Origin: Escherichia phage HK578
Sequence record: NC_019724.1
Reading direction: 5' to 3' (one strand)
DNA: 43,741 bases
Each line of letters starts with the position of its first letter. The stretch's first letter is position 1. Below, in pieces: positions 10,417 to 38,698 of this stretch. The position numbers and the translations under genes are program-made. The notes below the pieces were generated by a model. The model ran no database searches and was not told the origin of the DNA. It saw nothing but the letters and a program-made list of their open reading frames with translations.

Positions 10417-10432
10417 ATTGGAGAATACTACA

Positions 10433-10795
10433 ATGGCTAAAGCACAACTCTTTACACTTGACCCTAAGCCGACTTTTAAGCTGCCGATTGAAATCCCGCG
10501 CCCCGGCGAAAACGAACCAGGCAAAATGACGTTTACCGTGCGCCACCGCCCTATAGACGAATTTTCGCAGACCATGCAGGATACAGAGCGAAAGTTGTCG
10601 GAATATGACGACAATGATCCGGACGGCTTTAATGTTATGGTCGAGGCCATCATGCACGTAGCGGAAGGGTGGAATCTGCCGGACGAATTTAACGCGGAGA
10701 ACGTCCGCCGCCTGGTGGTCAACTATCCGCGCGCGTTCGGCGTGTTCCACACTTCGTACTATCTCGAACTGATGGGATTGCGTGAAAAAAACTAA
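10433..10795 (+). CDS. tail assembly chaperone (G-like)
   Basis: ATG 10433 (MAKAQLFTLDPK...) with SD GGAGAA; ends with slippery A AAA AAC directly before stop; located before the tape measure gene. Confidence 0.7.
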   Translation: MAKAQLFTLDPKPTFKLPIEIPRPGENEPGKMTFTVRHRPIDEFSQTMQDTERKLSEYDDNDPDGFNVMVEAIMHVAEGWNLPDEFNAENVRRLVVNYPRAFGVFHTSYYLELMGLREKN

Positions 10796-11109
10796 TTGAG
10801 GCGGCGCGACGCTTTTATGGCCCGCCGCCACCCTCCGAAGATTTAGCCGCGAGTTTATGGGGCGCGACACCCGAAGACGTGTGTCCGCCCGTTGCGCTGT
10901 GGCCCGACAACGCGAAGGTAGTCGCAGTCTTCACAGATTGCTCCACGCAATGGCGTACCGGATTTGGCGGGGCATACGGCATAGACTACGGCGTACTGGA
11001 ATGGTTATTTAAGATGCACGGCATTGAAAACGCGCAACGTGCGTTTAAAGATATCAAGCTAATGGAACGCGTTGCGCTTGATGAAATGGCGCGGCAGAAC
11101 CCCGCATAA
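10433..11109 (+). CDS. tail assembly chaperone frameshift fusion (G-T-like)
   Basis: predicted ~225-aa product made by -1 slip at 10786-10792 joining 10433..10792 to the -1 frame ending at 11109; matches the conserved G/G-T arrangement upstream of tape measure genes. Confidence 0.55.
10786..10792 (+). other. -1 programmed ribosomal frameshift site (A AAA AAC)
   Basis: heptamer X XXY YYZ at the last two codons of the G-like ORF; -1 frame is open from here to 11109 (checked codon by codon 10792-10881). Confidence 0.6.
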
Positions 11110-11115
11110 CGAAGC

Positions 11116-11381
11116 AGGACAGGCGGGACGTCCCGTTTTATCCCGTTCTGTCCCGCACCTCTAAAAACTGCATATTTACCCACTCCTATTGCATAAATTA
11201 AAAGCGGGACAGGGGTGCTGTCCCGATCTGTCCCACCCCCAAAATGTGAATAGTTATGCAGTTTTCGCGCATAAAACAAACGGGACAAAAAGCGGGACAG
11301 AATTGGGCGGGACAAAGCGGGACGTCCCGCCGCCCCCATCAGTGCTGCCGCGTGTTTCAGCCGATCGGGACAGGCGGGACA
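11116..11381. repeat. GGGACA / TGTCCC iteron array (copy A region)
   Basis: about 13 copies of GGGACA or its complement in ~270 bp, including palindromes GGGACGTCCC (11125-11134, 11318-11327) and pairs spaced 9-12 nt. Confidence 0.7.
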
Positions 11382-11435
11382 AAGCCCAGTCTTTCAGACT
11401 AGACGGGGGTCATTGGCCCCCCTCGTCTGAGACTG
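11246..11435 (+). repeat. ~190-bp dispersed repeat, copy A
   Basis: aligns by eye at roughly 85 percent identity to 38348..38539: shared blocks tgaatagttatgcagtttt, cgggacaaaaagcgggacaga, gggcgggacaaagcgggac, gggacaggcgggacaaa and the terminal hairpin. Confidence 0.75.
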
Positions 11436-11503
11436 AATAAGGTTTGTTTTAAATTCGCTGATACAATGTCAACCGGCAACTGCATAAAAAGGGGGACTGC
11501 ATA

Positions 11504-14146
11504 ATGGCAGATCAGGCAGCGGGCATCACGCTCAAGGCGGACGTCGCGCAAATTAAAACGGCTAATACTGTGCTGGACACATTTGCGCAGAAATCCGAGA
11601 ACACAGAACAGAAAGTAAAAAAATTAAACGACACACTCGGCAAGTCTAAAAAGGTTACTGGCGACGCCGCGGGCGGAATGGAAAAGTTAGCGACTGAATC
11701 GCAGCGTGCCGCCGATGGTATGTCAAAACAGGAGCGACTCGCCAGCCGATTAGGCATGTCGACCAAAAACCTGGGATTCGCATCGCGGAACGCCGCATTC
11801 CAGTTACAGGATATCGCGGTAACGCTCGAGATGGGTATGCCGGTGCATCGAGTAATGCTTCAGCAGCTACCACAGCTTACGGGGGCGTTTGGTGGGTTGG
11901 GGAATACGCTGCGTTATGTCGTCGGCACCCTCGGCCCGATAGGGATCGGAATCGCTGCATTAACGGCAACGCTAGGCGTGGGCGTGGCGATTACGTCCCG
12001 CGCGGAAAACCAAGTGGCGGCGCTGAATAAGACGCTGGCGCTGTCCGGTAATATTTCGGGCCTCACCGCTAACCAGATCCTGGTGCTATCCGAGAACGCC
12101 GAGCGGATGGGCGGATCATTCCGCAAGACGCGTGACACAATTCAGTCACTGGCGGCGGCTGGGGTGAAAGCCGGAGCGGATTTCGGCGGGTTAGCAAAGG
12201 TGGTTAATGACTTTGCAAAGACGTCGGGCCAGCCTATTGAGGACGTGGTCGCGTCGGTGGCGAAGCTGTCCACTGACCCAGTAGGTGGTTTGCGCGCACT
12301 GGCGGATAAGTATCACGTCGTAACCGAAGCGCAGATCCAGCAGGTGCAGTCATTGGTGGATGTGGGCCGCGAGACAGATGCGGTTGCGCTGGCGAACAAA
12401 ACCGCCGCGGCGTCGTTTACCACTATGACAAACGATATCAAGGCGAACATGGGTACGCTTGAGCGGTCGATGAACGTCGTCACATCGGCAGCTAAATCCA
12501 TGTGGGACGCCATCCTGGATGTGGGCCGCGCGCAGTCCTCCAATGAGTCAGAGATGAAAGCGCGTGAATCCTTGCAGCGCATGACCACGGCTTACTATGC
12601 CGAGATGAAAGCGGTAAACGCTGCCGGTGGGGTGATGACTGAAGCGCAGAAAGCACGTATTAACATGCTTTACAGCGAAATGGTCGCCCAGGAGAAAGTA
12701 GTGGCGTCGCTCACCCTGCGCAACCGCGCCGAGCGGGACAACGCCCGCGCCTCGGACGAATCGGCGAAGGCGAACGAGGAGGCCAACCGCGCTGCCCGCG
12801 ACCGCGCCGCATTTGAGAAGGAATTCGCCACCAACGCGAAGAGGCGCTCCGACGAGATCGCTCGCCTCAATTTGCTGAATAAGCGCGGCGTTATTAGCGA
12901 GAAAGAGCTTGCCGAGGCGGTGAAGCAGGTAAACGAGCGCTACAAAGACCCGGCCCCGAAGAAGGCCGCGGCTGTTCGCGTGGATGCCGGTATGAAAATG
13001 CTGGAAGTCGCACGGAGCGAACTGGCCCAGCTTCGAGAATCCGGCAAGCAGATCGAAGCCAACGCATCGACGCAGACCCGCACACAACGCGCTCAAGCGG
13101 CCCTAAACAAGCTGATCGCCGACAATGAGCAGTTAATTGCTGCGAGCAAAGAAAGAGCGCTAACGGCAGCCGAAAAGCAGCAGATGGTCGAATTCGGACG
13201 CGTGAAGGAAGTGCGCGAGCAGATCGTCGAAGAAGCCAAATTGCTGGATGCGAAAGAGCAGCAGGTTAAGGCGCACGCGCAGATCGATGCCTTCGTTAAG
13301 AACCAGAACGCCGAACTAAAAGCCACCGCCGCGGGGTATGCGCTTTCCACTCGCGAAGCGGCAAACCTGCGCGAAGAATTGCAGCTAATTGATCGCCTGA
13401 AGCGGGTTGGCGCTAACGATACCGATATAGACAAGGCGGTGTCTAAGCTGCGCGAAGTGCAGGAAGCACAGACCGGAGCTAACGCCTCGCTATGGGATGG
13501 CTTCAGCCACGGGCTTAAGGATAGCGTGGATGAAATGGGTAACGGATATACGCAGATGGCGTCTCTCACGAAATTCACATTCAGCGCTATGCAGGACACG
13601 ATGAACGAGTTTTTCGAGACTGGCAAGCTGAACGCAAAGGATATGGTTAAGTCCATCCTGAGCGAATTAATCAAGCTGGCTACCTCGCAGGCGTTCAAGT
13701 CCATCGTTAGCGCTTTCGGTGGTGACGGCGGCAAAAACGGATTGTTCGGCGCTATCTTCTCTGGCCTTACTAAGAATGCGGACGGTGGAGCGTACGCAGG
13801 AGGCAATCTCGCGGCCTATTCGGGGAAAGTGGTAAGCCAGCCTACCTTTTTCAGTTATGGCGTCCAGGCGTTCGCTAAGGGCGCTGGGTTGATGGGTGAG
13901 GCTGGGCCTGAGGCCATCATGCCGCTGAAGCGCGGGCCGGACGGGAAACTGGGCGTTGCTGCGTCTGGCGCAGGTGGTGGTATGGTCGTGACGACTAACG
14001 TTTACACGGGGACCGGTAAAACGGATACCAGTGTCGGCGGGCCGGACCCCCGTACCGCGCAGGCGTTCGGCAAGCAAATCACCGAGGCGGTGAAGGCCGA
14101 GATCGTGAAGGCGACGAAACCGGGTGGTGTACTTTATAAACGATGA
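11504..14146 (+). CDS. tail tape measure protein
   Basis: 880 aa, helical Ala/Gln/Glu/Lys-rich, Gly-rich C-terminal region; SD AGGGGGA; follows G/G-T. Confidence 0.85.
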   Translation: MADQAAGITLKADVAQIKTANTVLDTFAQKSENTEQKVKKLNDTLGKSKKVTGDAAGGMEKLATESQRAADGMSKQERLASRLGMSTKNLGFASRNAAFQLQDIAVTLEMGMPVHRVMLQQLPQLTGAFGGLGNTLRYVVGTLGPIGIGIAALTATLGVGVAITSRAENQVAALNKTLALSGNISGLTANQILVLSENAERMGGSFRKTRDTIQSLAAAGVKAGADFGGLAKVVNDFAKTSGQPIEDVVASVAKLSTDPVGGLRALADKYHVVTEAQIQQVQSLVDVGRETDAVALANKTAAASFTTMTNDIKANMGTLERSMNVVTSAAKSMWDAILDVGRAQSSNESEMKARESLQRMTTAYYAEMKAVNAAGGVMTEAQKARINMLYSEMVAQEKVVASLTLRNRAERDNARASDESAKANEEANRAARDRAAFEKEFATNAKRRSDEIARLNLLNKRGVISEKELAEAVKQVNERYKDPAPKKAAAVRVDAGMKMLEVARSELAQLRESGKQIEANASTQTRTQRAQAALNKLIADNEQLIAASKERALTAAEKQQMVEFGRVKEVREQIVEEAKLLDAKEQQVKAHAQIDAFVKNQNAELKATAAGYALSTREAANLREELQLIDRLKRVGANDTDIDKAVSKLREVQEAQTGANASLWDGFSHGLKDSVDEMGNGYTQMASLTKFTFSAMQDTMNEFFETGKLNAKDMVKSILSELIKLATSQAFKSIVSAFGGDGGKNGLFGAIFSGLTKNADGGAYAGGNLAAYSGKVVSQPTFFSYGVQAFAKGAGLMGEAGPEAIMPLKRGPDGKLGVAASGAGGGMVVTTNVYTGTGKTDTSVGGPDPRTAQAFGKQITEAVKAEIVKATKPGGVLYKR

Positions 14147-35574: not shown

Positions 35575-36003
35575 ATGAGCACAAACGAGACCTTAAATCG
35601 CTGGAACCATAAGAAATGGCCCCACCAAATTAACCGCGCCACCGAGGATGATAATACCATCGCTTTCGGCGATATGGACGCGGACCCTATGACCCCTGAG
35701 CAAATAGCCGCCGATGTGCTGTCAATGGACCGACATACGGCTTCGGAAATAATCGTTGCTCTGATAAACGAAATAAGCGGCAGCTATAACGAACTGAATG
35801 ACCTGTACGCGGAGCTTGACCTGTTGAAAGGTGGCGCTATCGCAGCGGTGCGTAAATCCGAAGAGGCAGCACGCGAGATGGCTATCGCCCGCGAGAAATA
35901 TATGCCTGTCGTTAAGCGCCTGCGTGCGGAAGGCTTGTCATGGAATCAGATCGCCGAGATGACTGGAATCAACCGTTCTACAATCCGCCAGTGGGCTAAA
36001 TGA
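35575..36003 (+). CDS. putative HTH DNA-binding regulator
   Basis: 142 aa; C-terminal helix-turn-helix LSWNQIAEMTGINRSTIRQWAK; first gene downstream of the rightward promoter. Confidence 0.55.
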   Translation: MSTNETLNRWNHKKWPHQINRATEDDNTIAFGDMDADPMTPEQIAADVLSMDRHTASEIIVALINEISGSYNELNDLYAELDLLKGGAIAAVRKSEEAAREMAIAREKYMPVVKRLRAEGLSWNQIAEMTGINRSTIRQWAK

Positions 36004-36013
36004 GACGAAAACA

Positions 36014-38275
36014 ATGAAAAATTACTTAATCGAGTTCGGCACCGTCGGCGGTAAGTACGGCAAGCGTGTTAAAAACCATTCTATGACGGAAGCCGAGTTT
36101 ATGGAATACGTCGCGGATACAGTGGAGCTGTCCGGCGTTACCATTACCGGCGACGAGACTAAGAAAGAATACGATGCGGTGAAGGGTAAGGCGGAAGGCA
36201 TTGTCGCCACCACTAAAGGCCGCGGTCGTCGCGCCACGGAAGTGGGTGTGCGTTCGGTTTTGTTCTACGATCTGGACCGCACGGACAACCGAACCCTGGG
36301 TCGTGTTAAGCGGGCATTTCGTAAATCCGGCCTGTCCCACGTCTACTACTCCACTACTGGCGACCGCCATCCGCTGAAGGGCGGCACACGTTGCGCACGT
36401 TTCCTGGTACTAACCAATAAACCGGTCGACGTTACCGATTTGGGGCGTGCTCAGTTCGCACTGTTACACGACCTCGGACTGGAAGACGTACCGTTTGACG
36501 ATTGCACAAAAAACGTCAACAACCTGCAGTTCCTCCCGCATTCCGGATCTACCGTGTCTTGCCACCACGGCAAACGTGCCAATGTGCGGCGTCTGCTCCG
36601 CCTGGCTGACAAGCTGGGGGTGGAGAAAGAGGAAGTACGCCGCGAGCTTACCCAGGGCGACGACGCAGTGGCGGACGGTATTCTGGACTGGTGCTTCCAG
36701 GCAGGATTCGAGGAGTTATCCTCCGGTCGCGGTTATGAAGTGCCTTGCCCGAACGAACATCTGCACAGCGGCGAAGGATCGACGGCCATCATGGTCAAGG
36801 ATGGCGAGATCCGTTTCAAGTGTATGCACACCGGCAACGAGTGTTGCTCGGAGCTAAATAGACACCAGCACCTGGCGCTACGTCTTATCGGGATACCGGA
36901 CCACCTGAACGTCGAGCCGCACAACATGTCCCGTAAGCAAATCGCCGCCATCCTCCCAGGGCTGGACGACGAGGAAGTCGAATCCTTATATGAACATATT
37001 GTTGATGCGGTTGGCGACGGCGAAGAATACGGCGTATGCACCGATGCGGATCTGGATAACGAGCCGGTTGCGCTGTTCAGTAAGCACGACCCGATCATCG
37101 AGGGGTTGATTAACTTTAAATCGACCTGGTATATGGCGGGCGAGTCGAATATCGGTAAGTCGTTCTATGTGCTGGGGCAGATGGGCGCGGTTGCCGCCGG
37201 TATCCCGTTTGGCGGTGCGAAGGTCGTCCAGTCGCATTGCTTCTATTTCGATGCGGAAGGCGGCGAAGCCTCCAACCAGCGTAAGGAGGCATTGCAGATC
37301 AAATACGAGCACGACCTGGACAAGCTGCACATTATCGACCTGCAATCACGCGGCTGGGATATCACCAGCAAGTCTGGCTTGCGCGAAGTTATCAGCTTTA
37401 TCAATCGCACAGCTAACGGGGAGCCGGTTGGCCTGGTGGCATTCGACTCACTCAACCAGACTGTTGCGCTGCGGTCCGCCGATGCTAAACCATTTGACGA
37501 GAACAACGCCAGCGATATGGGTGAAGTGGTCAAAGCGTTAAAAGCCATCGCGGAAAACACAGGCGGCAGTGCGGGCGTCATCCACCACCCGGCGAAAGGT
37601 GCAAACGGCAGCAGAACCCCCCGCGGGTCCGGTGCGCTTCATGGCGCTGTCGATTCTGCGTTCTTCCTGGAACAGCCGGACGACAACCAGCCGGGGCAAC
37701 TTAACCTTTATCACGAAAAATCACGTAACGGCATCAAGCAAGCGCCTCGTGGCTTCGTCCTGCTCAAGTGCAAGGTGAAGGTAGATCTCCGCAAGTCAGA
37801 AGCGTTCGCGTCGCACCAGTCCACCAGCACCGGGCCAGACTTCGGCGACGTTGTTGCCGGTTGGGACGTCAAACCAATTGCGTCCACGCCACGCGACGAG
37901 ACTCTGTACCTCGTGCCGGTCGCCCTGGCGCCGTTCGCCATCGAACAGGCGAAGGCCGCGGGCAAAGCTGCAGTTAAGGAAGAAAACGCCGCCGGTCCGC
38001 GCAACGAAAAAGAGAAAGTGCTTTATGCTGCCCTGGAAAAACTGATGGAAGATAACCCGGACCATACTGGATTTAGTAAATCGGCAATTGTCCGCCAGGC
38101 TGGACTCGCGAAGGGTGGCACTTCGACGAAGGCAATCGACGATATGGTCGAGCGCGGCGTGATTGGTTTCTACACAGATCCGCACACCGGGGCCATCTAT
38201 GGGTCGTCGAATTTAGTCATCAAATCGGATAGCCCCATAACGCTTTCGGCGACCGATGATGACCTGAAAGATTAA
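36014..38275 (+). CDS. primase-helicase (Prim-Pol domain + zinc-binding region + RecA-like ATPase)
   Basis: 753 aa; N-terminal VLFYDLD and TTGDRH (archaeo-eukaryotic primase-like), Cys/His cluster CPNEHLHSG...CMHTGNEC, Walker A GESNIGKS and Walker B LVAFDSL; C-terminal ~100 aa possible DNA-binding domain. Confidence 0.8.
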   Translation: MKNYLIEFGTVGGKYGKRVKNHSMTEAEFMEYVADTVELSGVTITGDETKKEYDAVKGKAEGIVATTKGRGRRATEVGVRSVLFYDLDRTDNRTLGRVKRAFRKSGLSHVYYSTTGDRHPLKGGTRCARFLVLTNKPVDVTDLGRAQFALLHDLGLEDVPFDDCTKNVNNLQFLPHSGSTVSCHHGKRANVRRLLRLADKLGVEKEEVRRELTQGDDAVADGILDWCFQAGFEELSSGRGYEVPCPNEHLHSGEGSTAIMVKDGEIRFKCMHTGNECCSELNRHQHLALRLIGIPDHLNVEPHNMSRKQIAAILPGLDDEEVESLYEHIVDAVGDGEEYGVCTDADLDNEPVALFSKHDPIIEGLINFKSTWYMAGESNIGKSFYVLGQMGAVAAGIPFGGAKVVQSHCFYFDAEGGEASNQRKEALQIKYEHDLDKLHIIDLQSRGWDITSKSGLREVISFINRTANGEPVGLVAFDSLNQTVALRSADAKPFDENNASDMGEVVKALKAIAENTGGSAGVIHHPAKGANGSRTPRGSGALHGAVDSAFFLEQPDDNQPGQLNLYHEKSRNGIKQAPRGFVLLKCKVKVDLRKSEAFASHQSTSTGPDFGDVVAGWDVKPIASTPRDETLYLVPVALAPFAIEQAKAAGKAAVKEENAAGPRNEKEKVLYAALEKLMEDNPDHTGFSKSAIVRQAGLAKGGTSTKAIDDMVERGVIGFYTDPHTGAIYGSSNLVIKSDSPITLSATDDDLKD

Positions 38276-38347
38276 ATTTTGCGCGCATTGGTTGCCATTT
38301 TGAGTGTTTTTAGCTGGTCGCATTGGTTGCCGTGTAGTGTGAATATA

Positions 38348-38539
38348 GTGAATAGTTATGCAGTTTTATTGCATAAAGCAAGCGGGACAAAAAGCGGGAC
38401 AGACCAGGGGCGGGACAAAGCGGGACAGCACCCCCTGTCCCGCCCGGCTGGCGCGGCTCTCAGAGGAGCGGGACAGGCGGGACAAACCCCAGTCTTTCAG
38501 ACTAGACGGGGGGTCAATGGCCCCCCTCGTCTGAGACTG
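38348..38539 (+). repeat. ~190-bp dispersed repeat, copy B (GGGACA iterons + hairpin)
   Basis: seven GGGACA/TGTCCC copies at 38384-38484 and hairpin 38490-38539; homologous to 11246..11435. Confidence 0.75.
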
Positions 38540-38698
38540 CATAAAATCCCGGATTGCATAATACACGGCAGCATGTTGCGGATTGCGGTCGTCGCTGAAC
38601 TAGGCAACCAATGCGAGTTGCAGAATGGTGGGTGAAAAATGCAGTTTGCAGTCACAGCAGATAGCGATCAACTTTTTCATGCGCGTGATTAATATTGG

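Follow-up and report, generated by a model that had tools for sequence, protein, structure and literature searches.

The window analysed here is the complete genome (43,741 bp) of Escherichia phage HK578 (NC_019724.1), a Dhillonvirus (HK578-like), in which a 394-bp gap (11110–11503), rich in the hexamer GGGACA and its complement, separates the tail assembly chaperone genes from the tape measure gene. We found that the right half of this gap (the whole gap is hereafter called copy A) is paralogous to a second module, copy B (38341–38545), which was overlooked in the first-pass annotation of the genome and lies just past the primase-helicase gene. On balance, the comparisons described below lead us to favour the reading that copy A is an initiator-binding, origin-like module which was duplicated into the tail operon. 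The genes and modules concerned are the following:

10418–10795, forward strand: tail assembly chaperone G (Pfam PF08748, Phage_TAC_4)
10784–10790, forward strand: slippery site A AAA AAC of the G/T frameshift
10786–11109, forward strand: T, the -1 frameshift extension of G, open from 10786 and with its stop at 11107–11109 (DUF1799)
11110–11503: copy A
11504–14146, forward strand: tape measure gene, ATG at 11504, 880 aa (Pfam TMP_2 and Tape_meas_lam_C)
36014–38275, forward strand: primase-helicase of 753 aa, the candidate initiator (AEP PrimPol and Zn-Cys/His region at residues 1–350, AAA_25 at 356–530, winged-helix-like part at ~660–740)
38341–38545, forward strand: copy B, the full module

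The first-pass annotation had taken adjacency of the chaperone and tape measure genes as the norm, and in more distant relatives this is indeed the case: in L244 (related sequences are given here as L numbers) a single base lies between the T stop and the tape measure ATG, and in Hafnia phage TS33 the T and tape measure genes overlap, with no gap and no copy A between them. It had also seen no convincing open reading frame in the gap. Aligned to related phages, copy A is kept and no conserved protein-coding gene is found; among 12 Dhillonvirus copies the indels (1 nt and 11–12 nt) break the reading frame, since none has a length divisible by three, and each genome has other longest open frames. 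The gap is therefore non-coding. Small coding sequences have been annotated on the modules of KarlBarth (L001; 3615–3710 and 3892–4020) and of TS33 (WQY91263.1, 10979–11260); relatives do not share these frames, which are probably artefacts of annotation. In L240 (3960–4360) and L243 (3960–4740), small reverse-strand genes (moron-like inserts) lie in the chaperone-tape measure gap beside copy A; the junction is therefore a permissive insertion site.

The core GGGAC/GTCCC occurs 14 times in the gap, compared with 0.38 occurrences expected from the rest of the genome (Poisson P ~1e-17). Eight of these cores are in forward and six in reverse orientation, and both orientations are equally conserved, which fits recognition of double-stranded DNA. 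For exact hexamers we counted 9 GGGACA and 12 CGGGAC, so that the earlier estimate of about 13 copies of GGGACA holds for the 5-mer core but not for the exact 6-mer. The direct arrays of copy A have spacings of 12, 15, 10 and 9 nt. An iteron-type origin has at least three similarly spaced direct repeats, and each of the two modules contains four direct repeats plus two more, at spacings of 9–16 bp. GGGACA clusters at only one other place in the genome (38384–38484), within copy B. No Rfam family matched any part of the window at the gathering threshold. Copy A can be divided into the following elements (the A+T content of the genome is 45.5%):

11110–11156, reverse strand: left arm with mostly inverted repeats, an inverted copy of right-arm repeats 3–4 plus palindrome; its units are AGGACA (11116–11121), the palindrome GGGACGTCCC (11125–11134), a degenerate ATCCCG (11140–11145) and TGTCCC (11149–11154)
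11157–11204, no strand assigned: AT-rich segment (68.8% A+T) with an inverted degenerate box 1 (11164–11183) and TGCATAA (11190–11196)
11205–11239, no strand assigned: central dyad GGGACA-N7-TGTCCC followed by another TGTCCC, the centre of a ~220-nt imperfect palindrome
11240–11281, forward strand: AT-rich box 1 segment (66.7% A+T), with TGAATAGTTATGCA (11247–11260) within a TTATGC-N9-GCATAA dyad, common to other lineages
11282–11331, forward strand: four direct CGGGAC(A) repeats starting at 11282, 11294, 11309 and 11319 (spacings 12, 15 and 10), the last of which forms GGGACGTCCC
11332–11365, forward strand: GC-rich spacer with the motif CAGTGCTGCCGC...AGCCGAT, an invariant block in the 12 A copies
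11366–11386, forward strand: two direct repeats 9 nt apart, CGGGACAGGCGGGACAAAG, identical in copies A and B
11387–11435, forward strand: three-stem imperfect hairpin, CAGTCT..CAGAC..GACGGGGG / CCCCCC..GTCTG..AGACTG
11436–11503, forward strand: segment before the tape measure gene, near-invariant in 12 of 12 Dhillonvirus copies, with a T-rich tract (11443–11453), TGATACAAT (11459–11467), CGGCAAC (11474–11480) and two CTGCATAA boxes
11490–11496, forward strand: ribosome-binding site AGGGGGA of the tape measure gene

The left arm is a 24-nt inverted repeat, 92% complementary to 11308–11331, and is kept in the 12 genomes with an indel of one repeat (11–12 nt). The entire left half of copy A (11110–11245) is an inverted partial module, by which 11110–11345 becomes an imperfect palindrome of ~220 nt (fold z -7.5). 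Several elements named in the first-pass annotation were recovered in this way, namely two GCGGGACGTCCCG palindromes (11123–11135 and 11317–11329), the AT-rich inverted repeat (TTATGC-N9-GCATAA, 11254–11274), the large hairpin (49 nt, -13.4 kcal/mol, z -4.0) and the extended -10-like TGATACAAT, which is invariant in 12 of 12 relatives. Near-invariant in copy A are the repeats, CAGTGCTGCCGC, the hairpin, TGATACAAT, CGGCAAC and the ribosome-binding site, while neighbouring positions vary. The hairpin is a candidate single-strand initiation (priming) site and/or terminator stem.

Copy B starts 66 bp past the stop of the primase-helicase gene. The candidate initiator gene thus adjoins B but not A, which on the circular map lies 16.6 kb away. 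Its elements are:

38349–38362: box 1, in the dyad TTATGCA-N7-TGCATAA
38384–38427: four direct repeats
38436–38441: inverted repeat
38470–38484: two more repeats, separated from the preceding ones by a GC-rich spacer
38490–38539, forward strand: hairpin

The right half of copy A (11246–11440) and copy B are 84% identical over 198 bp and have the same order and spacing of elements: a TGAATAGTTATGCA box in an AT-rich dyad, four direct repeats (spacings 12, 15–16 and 10), an inverted repeat that forms a palindrome, a GC-rich spacer, two repeats 9 nt apart and a long hairpin. Copy B contains 7 GGGAC cores (0.32 expected), and with 71.4% A+T in 38341–38382 (45.5% in the genome) it also has the AT-rich segment of an iteron-type origin. 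The same repeat layout was found in all of the 15 retrieved Dhillonvirus B loci. Copy A has twice the repeats of copy B and a symmetric arrangement without counterpart in B. Furthermore, the two-repeat variants CAGGCGGGACAAAG and CAGCGGGACAGCAC segregate at both A and B, which suggests sequence exchange between the two copies.

Two further observations concern copy B. The 7-nt centre of its box-1 dyad (38356–38376) was compared with the same position in L005–L018 and reads GTTTTAT in some Dhillonviruses and the reverse complement ATAAAAC in others; this looks like an inversion of the loop between the arms and hints at formation of a dyad hairpin or cruciform, or at recombination, in vivo. Upstream of copy B, just past the primase-helicase stop, a 54-bp tandem duplication is present in L005, L009, L012, L014 and L018; it repeats the motif GCGCATTGGTTGCC and contains the palindrome ATATGGGAATTCCCATAT.

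The element is held by about 150 of 157 related phage records, nearly all of them with two places per genome, and the region is 80–93% identical to ~150 Dhillonvirus coliphages (e.g. PC2, KarlBarth, JL1, EP23 and SSL-2009a). Within both copies the columns of the repeat cores are better conserved than the rest of the stretch (0.87 versus 0.79 in A, P 0.006; 0.86 versus 0.83 in B, P 0.007). By searching viral contigs with the primase-helicase protein and the box-1 14-mer we found other lineages, in which the primase-helicase is 37–46% identical and the same layout lies directly 3' of its gene, with another repeat sequence: a TGAATAGTTATGCA box, 3–4 direct repeats, inverted repeat(s), a GC-rich spacer, 2 repeats and a three-stem hairpin. 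The repeats of these lineages are:

L023: CCGACA
L034: TTC(C/G)GACAA
L050 and L055: CGGACAA
L024: GGGATA
L028: GGGGAT(G/A)
L038 and Salmonella phage OP924284: GGGGGAGA (GGGGAGA type)
Hafnia phage TS33: GGGAGA/GGGATA
L027: (T)CGCCCC(G)

The hairpin, too, varies in sequence between the lineages, yet it remains three-stemmed, with a G-run/C-run at its core (z -2 to -4); compensatory changes were seen at 4 of 10 predicted pairs. Motifs of the form (G)YTGCCGR, related to the spacer motif, occur in other lineages, and CGGCARC follows the B module in all lineages too. We read the exchange of the repeat sequence, with number, order, orientation and spacing kept, as the signature of sites that co-evolve with a lineage-specific DNA-binding protein. 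The search for cultured phages related to L023 and L024 yielded no more than partial matches, to Pantoea phage AH01 and Hafnia phage TS33.

A copy upstream of the tape measure gene occurs in three lineages, each time with the genome's own repeat. L240, whose major tail protein is 73% identical, has an A copy with GGGAC repeats, and in the L027/L160/L243 lineage (tape measure 38% and major tail protein 58% identical) the module is located just upstream of the tape measure gene. In L027/L160 both the tape-measure copy and the B copy carry CGCCCC, with 52 bp in common at 88% identity. Such a concerted change of the repeat in both copies argues for one trans-acting reader. The Guernseyvirinae relatives have copy B only; in a Salmonella Guernseyvirinae phage we found one cluster in 39.3 of its 42.3 kb.

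The sole gene that is always beside the module is the primase-helicase. Pfam searches with its isolated N- and C-terminal parts gave nothing significant, and for this reason we used structure prediction; a sequence search of the PDB gave only a weak match to RepA (1g8y), and NCBIfam gave none. The N-terminal 350 residues were modelled with a predicted local distance difference test (pLDDT) score of 82.5 and match the AEP fold (cyanophage S-2L PrimPol, 6zp9, E 1.3e-4; Prim-PolC; the LigD polymerase domain); the region has an invariant DxD motif, an invariant D117, a near-invariant H119 and Cys/His motifs. Residues 356–530 form a RepA-type helicase domain (AAA_25, PF13481, E 2.8e-19). The last ~100 residues were modelled as helix-strand-helix-helix-wing, and the fold matches of this part are all to winged-helix domains (linker histone, MarR, LexA, RIO2 winged helix and ORC winged-helix domains). 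No part of the protein diverges more than this C-terminal tail, and its divergence tracks that of the repeats:

L034 and L050: core 99% identical, tail 54% identical, repeats differ
L050 and L055: core 98% identical, tail 100% identical, repeats the same
Window and L016: core 79% identical, tail 86% identical, repeats the same

The C-terminal domain as predicted binder would thus fit both the winged-helix-like fold prediction and the joint divergence with the repeats. We also considered the helix-turn-helix (HTH) protein encoded at 35575–36003 (142 aa), for which the other module-bearing lineages show no homologue upstream of their primase-helicase gene. In L016, a divergent Dhillonvirus with the same repeats as the window, the HTH motif is conserved. 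We rejected it as the general binder for want of a counterpart beside the gene outside Dhillonvirus; within the genus it might take this part. Altogether, the description of the gap in the first-pass annotation as a cooperative protein-binding array, origin-like or regulatory rather than a simple promoter, is supported by the comparative evidence, because the region is non-coding, is kept in ~150 genomes, is paralogous to the module that follows the primase-helicase gene and has an architecture that outlasts the change of its repeats.

Several results weigh against an origin-like module in the tail operon. GC skew, proposed as a check on an origin, gives no origin signal at A or B and is uninformative here, because it tracks the direction of transcription; the skew of GC, like that of AT, mirrors the three blocks of transcription in the genome, i.e. 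a forward-strand block from 1 to ~23.5 kb (terminase, head and tail genes), a reverse-strand block from ~23.5 to ~35.4 kb (DNA polymerase, exonuclease and others) and a forward-strand block from 35.6 kb (HTH protein, primase-helicase and small early genes). Box 1 is near-invariant in the B copies and degenerate in most A copies, and for this reason A may not be a functional origin. No such array was found directly after the primase-helicase gene in L019–L022, L025 and L026. The winged-helix fold matches are individually non-significant (E > 0.1), with a pLDDT of 69 overall and 76–89 over the domain. L023 and L024 are a partial exception to the joint divergence, since their tails are 70% identical despite different repeats, and the co-variation of tail and repeats could reflect linkage instead of function, because the winged-helix domain adjoins module B. 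Finally, a plain transcription-unit boundary would present the same picture of a hairpin, then a T-rich tract and then an invariant promoter.

Host factors were considered as well. Read from the sequence, with no enrichment scan, the boxes of the window (TTATGCAGT and TTATGCAAT) each match the DnaA box TTATNCACA at 7 of 9 positions, i.e. with more than one mismatch; relatives come nearer to it (L023, TTATGCACC; L240, TTATCCACG). Box 1 (TTATGCAGT) may be a DnaA-box-like site that has diverged, and in that case a host factor would be involved. In L240 (4545–4575) the partner of box 1 is TGGATAA (TTATCCACG), and in L122 (~11700–11900) a prefix TGAATAGTTAT is followed by perfect DnaA boxes TTATCCACA.

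The transcription-unit boundary is an alternative that we regard as unlikely. The repeats would then be operators (e.g. of the HTH protein) that modulate a hairpin/T-tract terminator and a promoter, and would so set when the tape measure gene (A) and the operon that follows B are expressed. This accords with the order of hairpin, T-rich tract, invariant TGATACAAT and ribosome-binding site in copy A, with the U-rich TTATTCAT after the hairpin and the strong sigma-70-like promoter 60–80 bp downstream in other lineages, and with the conservation of the HTH motif in L016 along with the repeats; moreover, such an arrangement is hard to separate from an origin, because origins are often flanked by signals of this kind. 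However, consensus promoter and terminator scans returned nothing at 11387–11470 or in B: the T-run of copy A begins 8–9 nt past the stem, copy B has no T-run, and the extended -10 of copy A comes without a -35. The HTH protein also lacks a homologue in the other module lineages, where the primase-helicase gene is always adjacent, the replacement of the repeats tracks the C-terminal domain of the primase-helicase, and 7–14 phased sites with a conserved three-stem hairpin exceed the needs of a terminator-promoter junction. A function as RNA (a structured 3' untranslated region, a small RNA or a protein sponge, in which the GGGACA units would be bound and the hairpin would be stabilising) seems improbable to us. 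Both copies are co-oriented with their flanking genes, the hairpin is stable (z ~-4) with a structure kept across lineages despite sequence change, and the copy A region folds strongly; yet Rfam has no match, the repeats are equally conserved in both orientations, as suits a double-stranded DNA site but not an RNA motif, and 9–16 nt phasing with adjacent AT-rich blocks is a feature of DNA sites. In addition, the inversion of the 7-nt box-1 dyad centre between genomes keeps the DNA palindrome but not an RNA sequence.

About as improbable is that copy A has no function of its own and arose as a neutral duplication, as a scar of recombination or as a selfish repeat, kept B-like by gene conversion. 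The permissive junction with its extra reverse-strand genes in L240 and L243, the polymorphic variants common to A and B (suggesting gene conversion) and the decay of box 1 in A are what such a history would lead one to expect; against this, A is kept in ~150 genomes and in three lineages with tape measure identity down to 38%, its repeats, spacer and hairpin are near-invariant while neighbouring positions vary, and it has gained extra repeats and a symmetry without equivalent in B. We see hardly any chance that copy A is a physical genome end or packaging site (cos or pac), as one might suspect from record or contig boundaries in or beside A in Kente, PNS1, CHD5UKE2, L239 and L160/L243 (OX460974 (L150), record ends; NC_073063, PNS1, 135–497; MZ234029, CHD5UKE2, 1–300; L239, end; L160, start, and L243, end). 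No two breaks coincide: they fall in the left arm, the repeat array or the hairpin, ~100 nt upstream, or inside GCAACCAA repeats at which the contig ends overlap. The paralogous B would be cut too, and most records start elsewhere. We dropped the idea of a packaging end since the breakpoints differ between assemblies; the five breaks at A most likely reflect assembler failure at the genome's largest repeat/palindrome, not true termini, and the element would thus explain the frequent assembly breaks at this locus.

Extra arrays of initiator-binding sites are familiar from iteron plasmids (e.g. P1 incA), where they lie outside the minimal origin and titrate or handcuff the initiator. Those arrays are copy-number brakes in plasmids, whereas it is not obvious why a lytic phage should hold down its copy number, and the hairpin and spacer are retained in copy A besides the repeats. 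Handcuffing is described in PMC4857107. The closest parallel to the present arrangement is Bacillus phage SPP1, which has one origin, oriL, in the initiator gene and another, oriR, between genes of the late assembly cluster, where the segment holding it breaks up the cluster and has transcription signals on both sides; gp38 binds both origins, and gp38-bound oriR was proposed to stall forks and thereby to bring about the theta-to-sigma switch (PMC6316719). Here, too, we find two similar regions with repeats and AT-rich DNA, one at the gene of the candidate initiator and one in the late cluster, 16.6 kb apart as compared with ~13 kb in SPP1. In contrast, gp38 is unrelated and uses a separate loader and a DnaB-type helicase, while the candidate here is one AEP/RepA-helicase/winged-helix fusion; oriL is inside the gene and no hairpin is described for SPP1, while B is downstream of the gene and has one; and binding was demonstrated in SPP1, while here it is predicted. 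The present arrangement is an analogue of the SPP1 system and not a member of it, because the candidate initiator is an AEP PrimPol/AAA_25/winged-helix fusion.

In satellite phage P4 the type I repeat is TGTTCACC, and replication reportedly depends on repeats clustered at two places, ori and crr (the cis replication region). The repeat here, CGGGAC(A), is a different one. P4 alpha is a multifunctional primase-helicase whose C-terminal winged helix binds the origin repeats, after which the protein unwinds and primes (PMC4234260). The primase-helicase of the window has the same order of domains (primase, helicase, C-terminal winged helix), the winged helix at the level of fold and with non-significant scores; P4 differs by its Toprim/DnaG-like primase and SF3 helicase, in place of the AEP primase and the AAA_25 RepA-type helicase found here. 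At RSF1010 oriV, which has GC-rich and AT-rich blocks, RepC binds the repeats, RepA exposes the ssiA/ssiB stem-loops and RepB' primes (PMC4234260). An AAA_25 helicase and an AEP-like primase are common to both systems, fused here and separate there; RSF1010 has two ssi hairpins on opposite strands, 20-bp repeats and three proteins, as opposed to one hairpin per module, a core of ~6–8 bp and one protein here. The plasmid pRN1 has a stem-loop origin immediately downstream of its own AEP/helicase/winged-helix gene (ORF904), an arrangement that was also noted in some phages (PMC4234260). Copy B likewise lies directly downstream of a gene predicted to combine such domains; the helicase of pRN1 is of the SF3 type, its origin lacks repeats and the stem-loop is 100 nt long, and the present system has a RepA-type helicase, repeat arrays, a ~50-nt hairpin and a second copy elsewhere in the genome. 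Judged by its sequence features, the element would best be classed as a putative phage origin of the iteron type that has been duplicated, unusual in its composite site (repeats plus hairpin) and in its location in the tail operon.

The analysis shows that the repeats cluster, that A and B are paralogous and conserved, that the repeat is exchanged between lineages within a retained architecture, and which folds the domains match. Which protein binds, whether either copy fires, and how promoter and terminator contribute is what we infer in the following scheme for the origin-like reading. The C-terminal winged helix of the primase-helicase would bind the CGGGAC(A) repeats cooperatively, the 9–16 bp spacing putting successive repeats on roughly one face of the helix. 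The RepA-type helicase domain would then oligomerise and either open the AT-rich box-1 segment (67–71% A+T) or extrude the hairpin, and the AEP primase domain would prime on the exposed single strand at or near the hairpin. Since copy B is complete and adjacent to the primase-helicase gene, it is the probable primary origin. Copy A would be a derived, partly palindromic duplicate of B that has kept the repeats, spacer and hairpin and in which box 1 has decayed. It may be a second origin or an auxiliary initiator-binding site, and we consider these about equally likely; as an auxiliary site it could act as an enhancer looped to B, like P4 crr, or as a bound fork-stalling roadblock, like the role proposed for SPP1 oriR. 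Because copy A interrupts the tail operon, putative signals for a restart follow it: the extended -10, which the first-pass annotation had already suspected, the CGGCAAC motif and the ribosome-binding site would plausibly let the tape measure gene be expressed despite the insert.

More tentatively, the modules might represent an origin class of Dhillonviruses and their relatives that has so far not been described, with copy A as an obligatory partner rather than a spare origin; we hold this to be a minority possibility. One AEP primase/RepA-type helicase/winged-helix protein would then read a composite site of lineage-specific repeats, bound by the winged helix, and a three-stem priming hairpin, as if the three-protein system of RSF1010 had collapsed into one polypeptide, and copy A would either be looped to B like P4 crr or form an initiator-bound fork barrier that triggers the switch to concatemers. 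In the literature searched, whose coverage is incomplete, we found no origin, nor this element, described for Dhillonvirus or Guernseyvirinae, and a search for transcriptomes of either group gave nothing usable.

Replication origins are unmapped for almost all non-model siphophages of E. coli and Salmonella, including the BASEL Dhillonviruses and those Guernseyvirinae that serve in phage therapy and biocontrol. The duplicated origin-like module offers a sequence-defined candidate with a recognisable signature (TGAATAGTTATGCA box, phased repeats and three-stem hairpin directly after the primase-helicase gene), a predicted binder in the C-terminal winged helix and natural specificity variants (GGGACA, CCGACA, GGGATA, GGGGAGA and others). 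The copy in the tail operon would be a test case for the 'late origin' theta-to-sigma idea of SPP1 in a tractable E. coli phage, and cloned copies could serve as initiator decoys (phage-encoded resistance).

Two observations reach beyond the modules themselves. In the plasmid database no replicon using the module was found; one 44-kb E. coli record contains a relative at 37% identity. In dozens of Salmonella enterica assemblies, contigs of 42–44 kb coding for a 44% identical primase-helicase are whole phage genomes, which suggests carrier-state or episomal persistence of related Guernseyvirinae phages. Secondly, the 8-mer TTGGTTGC occurs 19 times in the window (2 expected), mostly at intergenic boundaries and also flanking module B (5515, 5529, 16175, 21491, 21606, 24714, 24726, 25952, 28894, 32785, 32801, 35376, 38288, 38323, 38604, 38695, 38726, 39434 and 42100). 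The related sequences TGTTGGCTG and GCAACCAAC border the module of other lineages and, in L240 and L243, also border copy A; TTGGTTGC is probably a separate, genome-wide regulatory or promoter-associated site.

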